DNA of 64,000 bases from Chiloscyllium plagiosum (taxonomy: Eukaryota): contig NC_057751.1 in the NCBI RefSeq assembly GCF_004010195.1, positions 15,915,969 through 15,979,968 on the forward strand. Reading direction: 5' to 3'. Of this stretch, positions 19,301 through 25,300 are shown one piece after another (position 1 is the first letter of the stretch; each line of letters opens with the position of its first letter). The notes beneath the pieces are model-generated. The model saw only the letters and a program-made list of their open reading frames with translations. It did no database searches and had not been told where the DNA came from. Position numbers and translations under genes: made by a program.

Positions 19301-22300
19301 TCACCTGGATATCAAATAATTTAGCAGTAACTGCCAGGAGAAATTATACATCACTGAAAATATTTTAAAAAGTGGCTGCCGACAGCGTTTCAGGAAATAT
19401 AATAACGTGCGTTGTTTGCGCTACATGAGAATCTTGATGATTCCAAGTGTTTCAAAAGGCACTACACTGATCGAGTGGGTGGATTAGGAAGTGACAGATA
19501 TTTTAAACAGTGACAAAAGCAAGACAATACACAATGGTGAGCAATTTGCCCATGCACAAACTGACAGGTTACATGTGGACAGAAATGGAAACATGGTCCA
19601 CGATTTCACAATGGCGAAAGGGGGTCTTTTGCACCGTTAGAATACAGCATCTTGTTACCCATTTAGCCTTTTCCCACACAGATGTAGATGGGTGAAGTGC
19701 AAATCATTTGCAAGAATGAAAGATCTCATCAAGCAGCAGATGATCTTGACATCACTGCCGTTTCTCCTCACTGCAGCCATAGCATTAAAACTTGGATGTG
19801 AGACACTGAGTAGTTACCTGTAAGTCCAGCTGCTATGCCACCGCAATAGACTGTACAATTGCTGGGACTGGACTGATTTACAACTTCCTCATAGGACAGC
19901 TGTTTGGTATTTGCTGAAAAAGGACAAAAAGAGTGCACAGATCAAGTAAAGTCTGAAAAAATAAACCTACTTACAATAAGCTGAAGGTTTTAAAAATACT
20001 ATCTTTGCTTGCCAAAGTTTCATTCACCAAGTCAGCCTGCTGAGGATACCTTGGAATCTCACACGTTTGTCACCACAATTTACTTAATCCATGATATGAC
20101 GAAGCCTATGATTTCCCCTAAATTGCATGCATTAAACAGAACGCACATCTTATTGTGAAAATGTACAAGAACTTAGCACTCGAGTCAAGCTGCATTATCA
20201 GGGCTGTTCAAACATTTGCTTTACTCGCATTCTTGAGTGGAAAACTCTGATTTTATAACCCTACACAAAATAGTGCGAGTTGTTGGACCTCCAATACACT
20301 GCTCATTAAACTTACGCTCTGATGTACTCTTTGGGGCGGGAGGCTTGCGGGTTGCCCAGTTTGTTCGGATCTGTCTTCCTCCAAGCCACTGCCCTCCCAT
20401 CTGCTGAATGGCGTTTTCAGCATCCTGCAATTGAATGCAATGAGAGAGAAACAAAGTTTCAGTAACTGGAGGCAATAACCAAAACGCTCACCACAAACAA
20501 TGCACAAGACTTTCAGCAGTACACATGAGAAGGTGCTCCGAGGAAAAGATCAGCATTGCTTTACTTGCCTTTACAATGGGCTAACCTCCCAACCAAACGC
20601 CTTGCATATTCACCCATCATAAGCATCCCACAATGCAGCGCATCAGCCCAAACCTTACATACTGTCAGTGCTCAGCGTCTCCAACAAGAAATGAGAGTCT
20701 TTCTAACATTTCAACTGCAATAGTAAGTCCAAAAGTGCTTCACCGAGCTGAAAAGTTGCATGATCAGGCATAATAACTTTTGAGAAGCGGGATGCTGAGA
20801 GCAAGTTTCAAGTGTTGGGCTTTCATTAATTTTTTTTGAAAGGGGTGGGACATCCTTCTAAAACCTTTGCCAAAAGGCAAGTTTAACAAAGGACAAAAAC
20901 CAGTGAATGCCCTGCTGCTGACAATAAAATCAGAGGGGGAAATCGAAGGTCCAAGGCAAAATCCTGCAAAGAGGTTTGGGTGGATAAGGGAGTTGGGGCT
21001 TCTTTAAAGGTGTCATTGTTCAAGCCAAGAACCACGTGACATTCAATCTAGCCGGACCCTGTTTTTGTTTAGTTCACACTGTGACAGGGCTTCCGTTGTC
21101 TCCTCCGACCAAAATGTACATTCAGGATTTACCGGAGTGCTTTTTCACTGATAAAGAGACTGCTCTCACTTGTGCGCAGTAAATTATCTAGTACGAACAC
21201 TGGCCGACTTACCCACTTATTGTAGAAGGACACAAAGCCATACCCTTTGGATTTTCCAGTTGCCAAATCTTTGACCACTCTAGCATCGCTGGCAACACAA
21301 ATAAATTAAACATAATAAATAAACAGGCTTCTTGTCAGAATAAGGTGACTGTAAAGCATAAAAAGACAGGAACCACACACACGCACAAAACACACACACA
21401 CTGCTTATTGTCAACTCATCACGTCTCACCTTTGATACAGGGACCACTTATTGCAAGAGTGCCATATTCTACAAAGCACCTTTCTCCTTTGCCACTATAC
21501 TAAGTACTATGTCTTCACTTGCTAGTTCACTACATCTTGATTTGCTCATTCATTTAAAACAGCATTGTTAACTTTAATGTGGTAAACATGCAAACTGGAG
21601 CTGAGCTAGCTAACGTTCTTACAGAATTTTTTCTTTGTTTTAAAAGCTACTCAAATAGTTTGTAAGTTCATTCATTTTTTTAAAAAAATGTAAACCATCT
21701 GCTAGGCATGGTCAAAGCAGCTATTCCTAGTTATGAGACACCAGGCCAAATCAAAAAGCAAAAAAATTCATTGTACAATGCAAGATTAATTGAATGGCTT
21801 TCCTTAACCATGCACATTACTTAGCACTTGTTGCCAACAAGTTTTCTACCTATTCTTAAAAATACAGTATATGAAATAGAAAAAAGACTAGAAAAATAAA
21901 AAATAGGAATTAAAAGGCATACATCGCCTGTTAACAATTCTTTTAGTTTCTCGGAAGGGTGAATTCGTTACCCCCTGTTTGGACTGTGGGCAGCTGTAAA
22001 TTTTGAGAAATTAAGATTTTCAGAAACGGTTGCAAATATTCAGAGAAAGTGAAAACACTAATAAGACACTGTACTTCCAAAGTGTTAACAAGAACTACGC
22101 AGACTAGCATCAATATAATGAAAAGTGCATTATATACAGATAGAATCAGATCACTAAAGAACTGATTGAGAACTATTTTACGCACAATAGAGAAAAAAAG
22201 CAATTATATCTGTATACAAAGACAAAAGGAAATAAGACATCTACAACTGAGTGAACGATTATCCACTGTGACAGTCCCTTGCAGTTAGCCATGGAATTCC

Positions 22301-25300
22301 TGTCCATTCTTCAGAGACAGTCTGTAAAATAACCAGAGCCCTATTATTTGAAATTGATTTTGAACCCAACTATGGTGTATCTTCCTTTCCCCAGTTTGGA
22401 GATTGTTTGCATAAAATGTTTCTTAGGCAATTTATTAACTCAAGAATAAATTTCAAGCACACTTAAAAAGAAATCTCCCGCTCAGATCAATCAAGTGTGG
22501 TTTTTACCTTCAGGTGCGAATGTTTTGGTAACATCTTTGACATGCTTCAGTATAAAAATGATTTGGACTCCACTTTTAATGCGAGATTACCAAACAATCA
22601 CATGCGCAAAGACCAACGCTATGTGGATCAAGAGTTGAGGACACAAACTGTAGCACACGAGGTTTAATCTTGTGCAGCACCTTCAATGCTCCAATCACTT
22701 GAAACCCATTGCTCTTAAGTTGCACCTTGAAGACAGCCTGACACCTGGCTTATTTTCAGTGGCCCCTCAGAGTTTAAGTCTTATCTGAGGTTCACAACAG
22801 AAACCTCAAAAGTCCCATCAAACACACACATCTTTTAAAGGAAGTTGTGAAGCAGCAATCAAGTTACGATGTGAGCAATTTCTTCAAGTTTTAACCACAG
22901 AATGCATGAATTTGTGAAAATTCTTCTGTGTGAGTTCTGTCTTTCATCAATTTTCCAGTTTTGATTTCCAATGTGACACAGCTCTTAACACAAAAGGTGG
23001 GTGCCTGCTTTCTTCCACCTCCCCACACAATCCTGGCAATTCCCAGGGAAATTTCCAATCCAGTCTCAAACAACTCACTTATGTTTGGCATTGCCCAACG
23101 AGCCTGACAAGAACAGAAAAAGACCCCGCCACTGTGTCTGACATGGTGGCACAAACATCCATTCGGCAATCCAGTGCTACAATCATGCTCTCAACGAGTT
23201 TCTGTGCGGCTTCCCAAAGACCTGCATCAGCAGACGTAAAACATCATGATTCAAATACCCTCAGTGCACCTCATGCTGCTCAAATATTTGGTTCAATTGC
23301 AACGAGACACAATAACGACAGAAACTCAACATTCTGACAGAAAAAATACTGTACAAAACTCAAGATGGCATACTAACCAGGTGCCCTGCACAGAAGATTT
23401 AATCCATGACTACCAATGCCAGTGTTGGACATGTAGGTCACTTTAAGGTCAACCTGATGAAAGCAGTTGATGCCCATTAGACTTATTCCCCAGTCCAGGG
23501 CAGTGGGGGAATGGGCTGGTCTTCTGGACAGGCTAAACTACACATTTACAATTCAACACTTATAACTCTTCAAGTCTTTTGCTGTCCTGATTCAATATGT
23601 CTATCAATCTGTTAAACGTCTAAAGCTAATCCAAAAAAATCAAGAAAGAGTTGCTGTTTGTTAAACCTAACAAACAGCAACTTCATCATCAAGTTGCGAA
23701 AGGAATTCTATTTGTTTCTGAACTACATCCACATTGGTCAAGAAAAAGAAAACAAAAATTCACAATATCACCTCAAACTAAAGTGCATGAAGTTCTGAAG
23801 TCATGAAGCTAAGTCAATCATATTTATAATGAATCCTTCGACATGGAACAGACAAACGGCATTCTGCAAACACAAAGTTGTGCAAGACAACAAGTGAACT
23901 GCGTCAAGACTCCTCAAGACCTTTGGATATTGGAAGCCAAGTTCAACCATCACAAACATGCCCTTTGCAAGAATATCTTCAAAACATTCAATGGTGATTA
24001 TTTTCTAATGTCCCTGTCGAAGACAGAAGCGGAGTTTGTTCAAGTTAAGGTAGGCGTTGTGAGGAAGTTGGAAAATTTGTCACCCTAGCCAACCGGTCTG
24101 TAAATTCCCACCGCCTGAACAAGTTGCAACAGATTTCTCTGCCTCACCGAGATGCTTTAAGATGTCGTGTTATCGTGATCACAGGAGACTGGAAATTCAA
24201 TAGTGCACAGCATTCAGAAGGAGACATACAGTCAGGGAGATTTCAGCAAAAAGCACTGGCTGAAATATACAGTTATCTCATAAGCCAGCCACAATTGCAG
24301 CTTTTGATGCAGTGACACTATCTCATACAGCATTTCAATGAGTAACCAAATGCTATCATTTGTGACCGGTCAACTTAAGCAGACATGAATTATTAACGAG
24401 GATATCACGGCTTAGAGTTTTGAACCCATCCAACAAACTTGCCTCTTACATATAAAAACACTGACTTGAAACTTCTGCACAGATCTCTGCCAAAACAGGC
24501 AATAGACAATAGGTGCAGGAGTAGGCCATTCAGCCCTTCAAGCCTGCACCACCATTCAATATAATCATGGCTGATCATTCCTAATCAGTATCCTGTTCCT
24601 GCCTTATCTCCATAACCCTTGATTCCACTACCCTTGAGAGCTCTATCCAACTCTTTCTTAAATGAATCAAAAGACTGGGCCTCCACTGCCCTCTGGGGCA
24701 GAGCATTCCACACAGCCAACACTCTCTGGGTGAAGAAGTTTCTCCTCATCTCTGTCCTAAATGGTCTACCCCGTATTTTTAAGCTATGTCCTCTGGTTTG
24801 GCACTCACCCATCAGCAGAAACATGTTCCCTGCTGCCAGAGTGTCCAATCCTTTCATAATCTTATACTTCTCAATCAGATCCCCTCTCAGTCTTCGAAAC
24901 TCAAGGGTATACAAGCCCAGTCGCTTCAGTCTTTCAGTGTAAGGTAATCCCGCCATTCCAGGAATTGACCTCGTGAACCTATGCTGCACTCCCTCAATAG
25001 CCAGAATGTCTTTCCTCAAATTTGGAGACCAGAACTGCACGCAGTACTCCAGGTGTGGTCTCACCAGGGCCCTGTACAGCTGCAGAAGGCATGACAAAAC
25101 AGATCAATAACGGTTCCTTGTTGATTAAACACAGCCTAACAAGTTATGCAGTATTTCTATAGGATTTTTAACATAATCAACTCACCAAAGGCACATCACA
25201 GGAGAATTATAAATCAAAATACAACACTGAATCATGAGGTGGTACTTGATAGATCAAGAAGCTTTATCAAACTGGTAGGGTGTAAGTGCCTTAAAAGGAG

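Follow-up and report, generated by a model that had tools for sequence, protein, structure and literature searches.

In the TIA1 gene of Chiloscyllium plagiosum, the intron within RRM2 contains two exon-like blocks, here called A and B, which are homologous to stop-introducing exons of tetrapod TIA1 and TIAR and likely form a negative-feedback switch. We estimate the probability of this reading at about 80%. The pair is probably older than the duplication that produced TIA1 and TIAL1.

Host gene and candidate exons

The window is the whole analysed stretch of 64,000 nucleotides, and all coordinates refer to it. The features are as follows.

10219..48879, minus strand: TIA1 gene coding span, from tblastn with Narcine and Scyliorhinus proteins, exon map and tree; ends approximate
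near 48879 and near 10219, minus strand: start of exon 1 and end of the last coding exon, respectively; both approximate
31770..31857, minus strand: constitutive exon 5 (ending in FGRIS, phase 2), equal to human exon 6
22248..22321, minus strand: candidate poison exon A, predicted orthologue of human TIA1 exon 6A, with the preferred donor; from paralogue conservation and back-translated amniote peptides
22285..22287, minus strand: in-frame premature stop TAA after the 11-residue tail, at a position shared with shark TIAL1 and isoforms of amniotes
22160..22247, minus strand: stretch rich in U (50%) that follows exon A and may bind TIA
21923..21993, minus strand: candidate poison exon B, 71 nt, CAG acceptor, donor GAT/GTATGC
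21860..21922, minus strand: U-rich stretch after exon B (62% U)
21799..21814, minus strand: 16-nt element identical in TIA1 and TIAL1 and starting with TGCATG; from the paralogue alignment
21213..21288, minus strand: constitutive exon 6 (starting with DARVVK), equal to human exon 7

The exon map, the tree and tblastn all identify the gene as elasmobranch TIA1 on the minus strand. Exons 2-10, nine in number, are all bounded by GT/AG and together form an open frame; its product is identical to Narcine TIA1 at 274 of 275 positions, falls in the TIA1 clade (support 95/99) and has TIA-1 as its top PDB matches; the preliminary description had named the same host. The C22 gene agrees with Hemiscyllium TIAR at 271 of 272 positions.

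Block A lies between the FGRIS and DARVV exons. A CAG acceptor precedes 22321, and in silico splicing at this point to the phase-2 end of exon 5 yields an 11-residue tail closed by TAA at 22287-22285, with at least four later junctions more than 50 nt downstream. Both the in-frame stop and its distance from later junctions had been proposed earlier and are borne out. The acceptor, earlier called clean, is rather ordinary: it has 55% pyrimidines and an AG-free zone of 17 nt, and no branch-point consensus was found upstream of it.

By comparison with the U1 consensus, exon A has no convincing donor at its 3' end. GT sites could close the exon at 65, 74 or 77 nt (22257, 22248 and 22245), the human exon being about 66 nt. 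Of the 9 consensus positions, these candidates fit no more than 2, 2 and 4, whereas the nine constitutive donors of the gene fit 6-8. The most likely donor is TCA/GTTGTA at 22248, which would give a 74-nt exon, and the conservation with the paralogue ends near 22245. The previously proposed end at 22186 was dropped in favour of these 65-77 nt forms: its donor ATT/GTGCGT has no counterpart in the paralogue, lies some 60 nt past the point where conservation stops, and has a tail of only 42% U.

Block B (21993-21923), situated downstream of A, was absent from the preliminary description. Upstream of its acceptor, an AG-free zone extends over 58 nt, with a branch-point-like motif at -21; its donor is weak, fitting 5 of 9 U1 consensus positions. 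There is no internal stop, and in TIA1 its inclusion would shift the frame, leading to a stop in exon 8. A 22-nt form of exon B could arise from a GT at 21972, which is present in both paralogues and has no U-rich tail (23% U).

Both blocks combine a weak donor with a U-rich tail, B more strongly than A. The tail of donor B (+7..+36) contains 67% U, ranking first among 155 candidate donors of the intron, and its TIAL1 counterpart contains 73%. The tail of donor A contains 53% U, against an intron-wide 33%. Thus the U-richness noted earlier holds locally, in the two stretches listed above, and does not hold for the block as a whole (39%). The region 21000-24250 shows no repeat-like pile-up in BLAST against itself and the paralogue, as opposed to a search of a transposable element library, which is in line with the earlier remark that it is free of such elements. 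The TGCATG at the start of the 16-nt element is an RBFOX-type motif.

All seven modelled inclusion forms place the stop more than 50 nt upstream of two to five later junctions, counting junctions as far as exon 10.

Conservation in the paralogue TIAL1

Blocks A and B both recur in the same intron of TIAL1 at 77-81% identity (81% over 116 nt and 77% over 238 nt of intron DNA). In the comparison of eight orthologous intron pairs, the A and B matches are the sole collinear similarity besides two repeat hits. The segment 22241-22320 scores 87 against the paralogous intron, versus 21 +/- 2.4 (maximum 33) in 200 shuffles, and a search of the 3.56-Gb genome that skips very common words gave a single further match; the block is thus no chance similarity. 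The conservation starts just 5' of each acceptor and, in both paralogues, spans donor B and its U tract. The 196-nt spacer between A and B is at shuffle level (29 versus 27 +/- 3).

The blocks of each paralogue sort with their own tetrapod orthologue. Since they occupy the same intron of TIA1 and TIAL1, sort in this manner, and are the only non-repeat similarity in the eight intron pairs, the pair was probably present in a single ancestral TIA gene before the duplication. The duplication itself is older than the split of cartilaginous and bony fishes. The preliminary description had dated the feedback loop to before that split. This stands insofar as the predicted orthology to exon 6A reaches sharks; however, the age was understated, as the element occurs in both paralogues. 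In addition, exon B was missed and the donor was set too far downstream.

Truncated isoforms of tetrapods and fishes

The tail of shark exon A agrees in frame and stop position with annotated truncated TIA1 isoforms, which end in VSLKNGQNCPG in mammals, VSLKNGQNCHG in birds and MSLKNGEQCHG in Anolis, each followed by a stop. The sequence RIS-VSLKNGQNCPG is the C-terminus of annotated isoforms of mouse, carnivores, pika, bat and primates, so that the peptide given for human in the preliminary description is real. The TIAL1 blocks of the shark fit TIAR isoforms of birds, turtle, pig and wrasse: its A tail is IAVKNGQDPHG versus IAHKNGQDLEG in blackbird, ptarmigan and turtle, all with a stop after the last residue, and NAHRIGQELEG-LQQGTVHSG in wrasse, and its B tail, CPQSKKRVEN, has the same length and stop as CPNSKMMVEN of ptarmigan and pig. 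In TIA1, the B tail is CPQSKQG in shark versus CPQPKKG and a stop in zebra finch. All tetrapod isoforms in these comparisons are database gene models.

Among 375 stored proteins, 255 contain the exon-5 end. Of these, 155 continue into the canonical exon, 37 end there, 22 have a TIA1-A tail, nine a TIAL1-A tail and seven a B tail, and 25 have other tails. The best match in the 10.5-kb intron begins at the first codon after the predicted acceptor for those 11-residue TIA1 tails that are intact and for both B tails tested. The scores of such short peptides often do not exceed those of shuffles (mouse tail, 33 versus a null maximum of 33; P0306 tail, 32 versus 41), and therefore it is the position of the match that carries the weight. 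The tails of devil P0009, finch P0015 and snake P0278 match TIA1 best elsewhere in the intron with null-level scores. No match to A or B was found for the tails of teleosts (P0257, P0286, P0287, P0208, P0323), frog (P0316), reptiles (P0006, P0010) and a bird (P0024), or for those of P0275 and P0220; they fit neither block and thus represent other events or noise in gene models. Among the TIA1 isoforms of ray-finned fishes in the protein set none has tail A, which does not imply its absence there.

Human exon 6A and its product sTIA-1 were reportedly first described by Le Guiner et al. in 2001. The human exon has been sequenced as a 66-nt cassette encoding 11 residues and then a stop, according to passages of PMC4286123, and an siRNA against it given there, compared by eye without gaps, agrees with 22302-22282 at 16 of 21 bases. 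The shark block resembles it in gene, intron, frame, 11 residues with a stop, and recognisable sequence, and differs in its candidate lengths of 65, 74 or 77 nt with very weak donors. Because the peptide proposed for human is real and the human exon has this length and coding content, the predicted orthology of exon A to exon 6A at the level of sharks is well supported.

One alternative is a conserved non-coding DNA element or an unused relic, the exon-like features being incidental in this fish. None of the 255 exon-5-end proteins or of 22 short proteins is a cartilaginous-fish isoform with an A or B tail, and by consensus the exon A donors are nearly non-functional, which speaks for this reading. 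However, in both paralogues the conservation opens just upstream of the acceptors, takes in donor B with the U tract behind it and lapses in the spacer, and tetrapod gene models use the same acceptors, so that this explanation is extremely improbable.

Exon A could also be retained for the short protein sTIA-1 (RRM1, part of RRM2 and the 11-residue tail) rather than for mRNA destruction. Indeed, parts of PMC4286123 describe a 16-kDa protein with effects on VEGF isoforms in human cancer cells, and from shark to mammals both paralogues have retained the KNGQ core and the position of the stop. On the other hand, the conservation is at the nucleotide level: all six residues identical between the shark paralogues share codons, and the identity runs on beyond the stop. 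Models of crow, devil, snake and wrasse, some of which may reflect assembly errors, show a frameshift in the tail or read through it, and the exon B tails are unrelated. Selection for the short protein is thus quite improbable.

Possible mechanism of regulation

The preferred reading remains a stop-introducing feedback switch. Surplus TIA1 or TIAR protein would activate the weak U-rich donors of A and B and cause exon inclusion; the resulting premature stop would direct TIA1 mRNA to nonsense-mediated decay, and with the same switch in both copies the TIA1 and TIAL1 proteins would limit their summed dose. In mammals, as described in passages of PMC4385921, PMC3967051 and PMC2964331, TIA proteins bind U-rich RNA beside weak 5' splice sites and recruit U1-C; when overexpressed, they cause exons with stops to be included in their own pre-mRNAs. 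By analogy, we infer that inclusion, decay and TIA feedback may operate in C. plagiosum. Two results speak against it: PMC4286123 reports that TIA-1 overexpression did not induce exon 6A in human colon cancer cells, and Tia1 autoregulation in mouse ES cells reached significance only when overexpression was combined with Rbfox2 knockdown, the exon behind it not being named in the passages of PMC3967051 considered.

A different outcome would be a composite exon, in which acceptor A and donor B define a 399-nt stop-containing exon (22321-21923), or intron detention with A and B as decoy sites; TIA1 protein would still be lost, not via a short cassette. Base-pairing of donor A with acceptor B would favour this, and a 9-bp helix between them appears in the consensus fold of the two paralogues, with equal pairing of the donor 12-mer in just 24 of 10428 TIA1 and 2 of 8271 TIAL1 intron windows. 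The A donors are very weak, and the devil P0009, snake P0278 and finch P0015 models continue beyond donor A into U-rich sequence. However, the helix was picked after the fact, shows no covariation and has a mean pair probability of 0.40 in TIA1 and 0.00 in TIAL1; folding of the region does not surpass that of shuffles (z = -0.72), so that unusual overall folding is not supported. Moreover, the human cassette was sequenced at 66 nt (PMC4286123, in part), and crow model P0277 splices A to exon 6. We consider this outcome unlikely. A second helix, pairing the stop region with the TGCATG element, was discarded, as 665 of 10424 and 456 of 8267 windows do as well.

A broader scheme is speculative and rather unlikely: the two exons would be a single RNA-structured switch, passed on intact by the one TIA gene of early vertebrates, in which pairing of donor A with acceptor B together with TIA and RBFOX binding would choose between A, B, A+B and the fused 399-nt exon, and which both paralogues would have retained to cap their joint dose. 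If it is true, TIA1 exon B would add a second, little-studied arm to the human circuit.

Relation to known systems

Le Guiner et al. reportedly described in 2003 an 'exon pair' in TIAR conserved between chicken and human, to which blocks A and B presumably correspond. The TIA-induced exons of TIAR, as presented in passages of PMC4385921, are likewise two stop or frameshift exons within the RRM2 intron, each combining a weak donor with a U-rich tail. Here the pair is found also in TIA1 and in a cartilaginous fish, and shark TIA1 exon B, which has no internal stop, would act by frameshift. Another parallel is the poison exon of SRSF4 and SRSF6, which both vertebrate paralogues derive from the gene as it was before duplication; Lareau and Brenner 2015 (PMC4379411) describe it as the usual course that such exons are lost and replaced once a gene has duplicated, and the conservation in SRSF4 as relaxed. 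Unlike these, TIA1 and TIAL1 keep two tandem exons, donor tails and a downstream element at 77-81% identity. TIA is not mentioned in the main text of PMC6547761 or in the main text and four of the five supplements of PMC3595034. No full text stating a shared ancestral pair was found in the literature covered, Le Guiner 2001 and 2003 and Ni et al. 2007 being outside its scope.

Exon 6A in a shark is by itself unsurprising, since the mammalian feedback is known and deep conservation of poison exons in splicing factors is to be expected. The mechanism is not new; the contribution here lies in the age and the shared origin. The paralogue alignment singles out the conserved elements, namely the donor A region, the acceptor and donor of B with the U tract, and the TGCATG element. 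The retention of the pair contrasts with the frequent post-duplication loss or replacement in paralogous splicing factors (passages of PMC4379411). The sTIA-1 exon, which is linked to cancer, and the poison exons of TIAR appear to be one ancestral pair, present in both gene copies since before the split of sharks and bony fishes.

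TIA1 and its paralogue

Scanning for motifs and reading the boundaries by hand delimit nine minus-strand exons with GT/AG ends, which together form an open frame for a three-RRM TIA protein. The exon 7 peptide has its best structure matches in TIA-1. Exons referred to here are:

31770-31857, minus strand, exon 5
21213-21288, minus strand, exon 6
near 48879, minus strand, further TIA1 exon
12900-12720, minus strand, further TIA1 exon
10340-10219, minus strand, further TIA1 exon

In a tree of 23 proteins, from which cyclostome sequences are absent, the window protein clusters with ray and catshark TIA1; the TIA1 clade around them (support 95/99) also takes in coelacanth and tetrapods. 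The source organism is an elasmobranch. The single other TIA gene found in the genome, TIAL1 on contig G000:C22, encodes a protein clustering with Hemiscyllium and Callorhinchus TIAR. The TIAR rows of this tree form no supported clade, and an Oncorhynchus row named TIAR by its source is placed among TIA1-like teleost proteins. The TIA1/TIAL1 duplication is older than the cartilaginous/bony split.

The window also contains a 153-nt direct repeat, 93% identical, on both sides of exon 10 (13778-13930 and 14592-14744), and a 63-nt inverted repeat (27026-27188, 95% complementary, 37-nt loop) of a MITE-like family, dispersed copies of which are numerous in the window as well as at the paralogue locus. 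Runs of N occupy 48667-48702 (36 nt, just within intron 1 of TIA1) and 57947-58875 (929 nt).

Exon A

Joined at its phase-2 end to the candidate acceptor at 22321 (minus strand), exon 5 reads into a peptide of which 15 letters are not shown, with a stop at 22287-22285. Between human exons 6 and 7 lies exon 6A, a 66-nt cassette that adds 11 unique residues and a stop, yielding a 144-residue protein (Hamdollah Zadeh et al., PMC4286123; this and the other papers given by accession are cited from the accessible part of their text). The first exon-6A siRNA of that paper, compared by eye with 22302-22282, matches at 16 of 21 positions. Protein searches retrieved isoforms, all of them database gene models, with stop-terminated tails at the exon-5 junction: VSLKNGQNCPG in mouse, carnivores, pika, lemur, catarrhines and bats, VSLKNGQNCHG in four birds, and MSLKNGEQCHG in Anolis. 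When the intact tails are aligned to intron 5 (10,481 nt) in its three frames, the best alignments begin with the codon at 22320, directly behind the acceptor. Some tail scores reach only the upper end of the range given by shuffles, so it is this position that constitutes the evidence. These comparisons make exon A the orthologue of human exon 6A, which was already known. The candidate exon starting at 22321 is a counterpart of the mammalian one, as the preliminary description had proposed; the end that it gave, 22186, is abandoned, as this position lacks conservation in the paralogue.

The paralogue similarity of block A stops with a 12-nt identical stretch (about 22252-22241), beyond which both genes are U-rich. 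In a crow model exon A is read through into exon 6. This model and back-translated devil and snake read-through peptides are consistent with an amniote donor at position 66, a placement inferred from degenerate peptide sequence. Exon A appears to be approximately 9 nt longer at the donor end in both shark paralogues. The candidate donors are:

ATC/GTTCAC, 65-nt exon
TCA/GTTGTA, 74-nt exon
GTT/GTAGAT, 77-nt exon

These sites are all very weak, agreeing with the consensus at 2-4 of 9 positions where constitutive donors reach 6-8. The 74-nt exon is favoured, because its donor is the same in TIA1 and TIAL1.

Exon B and conservation between the paralogues

A second exon-like block, absent from the preliminary description, lies downstream. 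Searched against the genome, 21780-22060 has one other match (228 nt at 77% identity), which lies some 300 nt from the paralogue match of block A.

21993, minus strand, exon B acceptor, CAG with a long AG-free zone
21923, minus strand, exon B donor, GAT/GTATGC, identical in TIAL1
G000:C22:33408472-33409003, segment of the TIAL1 intron with both blocks
L002:1535 (paralogue locus numbering), start of TIAL1 exon A
L002:1837-1909, TIAL1 exon B

The exon B donor is followed by 67% U in TIA1, the highest value among the 155 GT sites of the intron that agree with the consensus at 5 or more of 9 positions, and by 73% U in TIAL1. TIAL1 exon B is 73 nt long and contains a stop; TIA1 exon B (71 nt) has no internal stop, and its frameshift leads to a stop in exon 8. 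Read after exon 5, the former gives CPQSKKRVEN and a stop, matching CPNSKMMVEN of ptarmigan and pig TIAR; the latter begins CPQSKQG, matching CPQPKKG of zebra finch TIA-1.

Eight orthologous TIA1/TIAL1 intron pairs (introns 2-9) were compared by BLAST (E < 0.001). Collinear matches are confined to intron 5 and comprise, besides blocks A and B, two dispersed-repeat stretches. Block A scores 87 (shuffles 21, maximum 33) and block B 176 (shuffles 24, maximum 34), whereas the spacer between them scores 29 versus 27 for shuffles. In TIAL1 the blocks occupy the equivalent intron, starting about 850 nt (A) and 550 nt (B) before exon 6.

Shark TIAL1 exon A, IAVKNGQDPHG and a stop, matches IAHKNGQDLEG of bird and turtle TIAR. 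A TIAR exon pair of chicken and human was reportedly described by Le Guiner 2003. Against exon A of shark TIAL1, a snake read-through tail scores 85 where the null maximum is 49, and one from a wrasse scores 49 where it is 43. Bird, lizard, mouse, turtle and snake tails are all closer to the shark block of their own orthologue than to that of the other paralogue, which argues for inheritance of the blocks in both paralogues rather than recent conversion.

Other possible splicing alternatives

Amniote TIA1 has an 11-residue alternative exon (SSTVVSTQRSQ in retrieved proteins) in the equivalent of intron 4 (31858-32620, 763 nt); it is absent from both elasmobranch TIA1 proteins inspected. Read-through of exon 7 (20200-20315) gives a peptide, 12 letters of which are not shown, faintly resembling the YECRCIGEE tail of mammalian 214-residue isoforms. 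For the human counterpart of this exon, a distal donor has been described as an NMD (nonsense-mediated decay) event (PMC8980049). The intron holding this read-through has no paralogue conservation in the eight-pair comparison.

Possible regulation

TIA proteins recruit U1-C and bind U-rich RNA beside 5' splice sites (PMC2964331). When TIA1 or TIAR is overexpressed, exons with stops are induced in both of the endogenous genes and the proteins are depleted; a supplement legend lists exons 5a, 6a, 8a and 11a (PMC4385921). Cycloheximide raises an NMD isoform of Tia1, its exon unspecified, in mouse ES cells, as does overexpressing Tia1 while Upf1 is knocked down; Rbfox2 restrains this isoform (PMC3967051).

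The shark anatomy fits this scheme in its weak donors, its U tracts, its NMD-competent stops (7/7 inclusion forms tested) and a 16-mer with TGCATG, identical in TIA1 and TIAL1 and 109 nt after the exon B donor; inclusion of exons A and B with NMD feedback in this fish is a prediction based on mammals. However, the very poor exon A donor counts against TIA-dependent inclusion, as does one study in which human TIA-1 did not induce exon 6A (PMC4286123). No truncated elasmobranch isoform was found in the 255 proteins that have the exon-5 end, nor in 22 short ones. A second TGCATG lies between exon B and exon 6 (21592, 304 nt before exon 6, in TIA1; 200 nt before it in TIAL1, L002), the two having no clear alignment.

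In a two-sequence consensus fold, a 9-bp helix joins the exon A donor to the exon B acceptor, a 7-bp helix joins the two exons, and the stop region pairs with the TGCATG element. The donor helix is within the top 0.23% (TIA1) and 0.02% (TIAL1) of intron windows. However, its pair probability is 0.40 in TIA1 and 0.00 in TIAL1, covariation is absent from the two-sequence consensus, and the exon A-B region folds no differently from its own shuffles. This putative structure is a lead only.

For SR paralogues, most poison exons are of independent origin or are replacements that followed the duplication, while SRSF4/SRSF6 share theirs (Lareau and Brenner, PMC4379411), and the same is said of RBP paralogues generally (review, PMC11062102). 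The accessible parts of PMC8980049 and PMC9318959 hold nothing further on exons A and B, and the literature searched, primary papers being outside it, contains no statement on their shark conservation or TIA1/TIAL1 homology. The likely mechanism is of an already known kind; what is added here is the greater age of the known exon, and a second exon.
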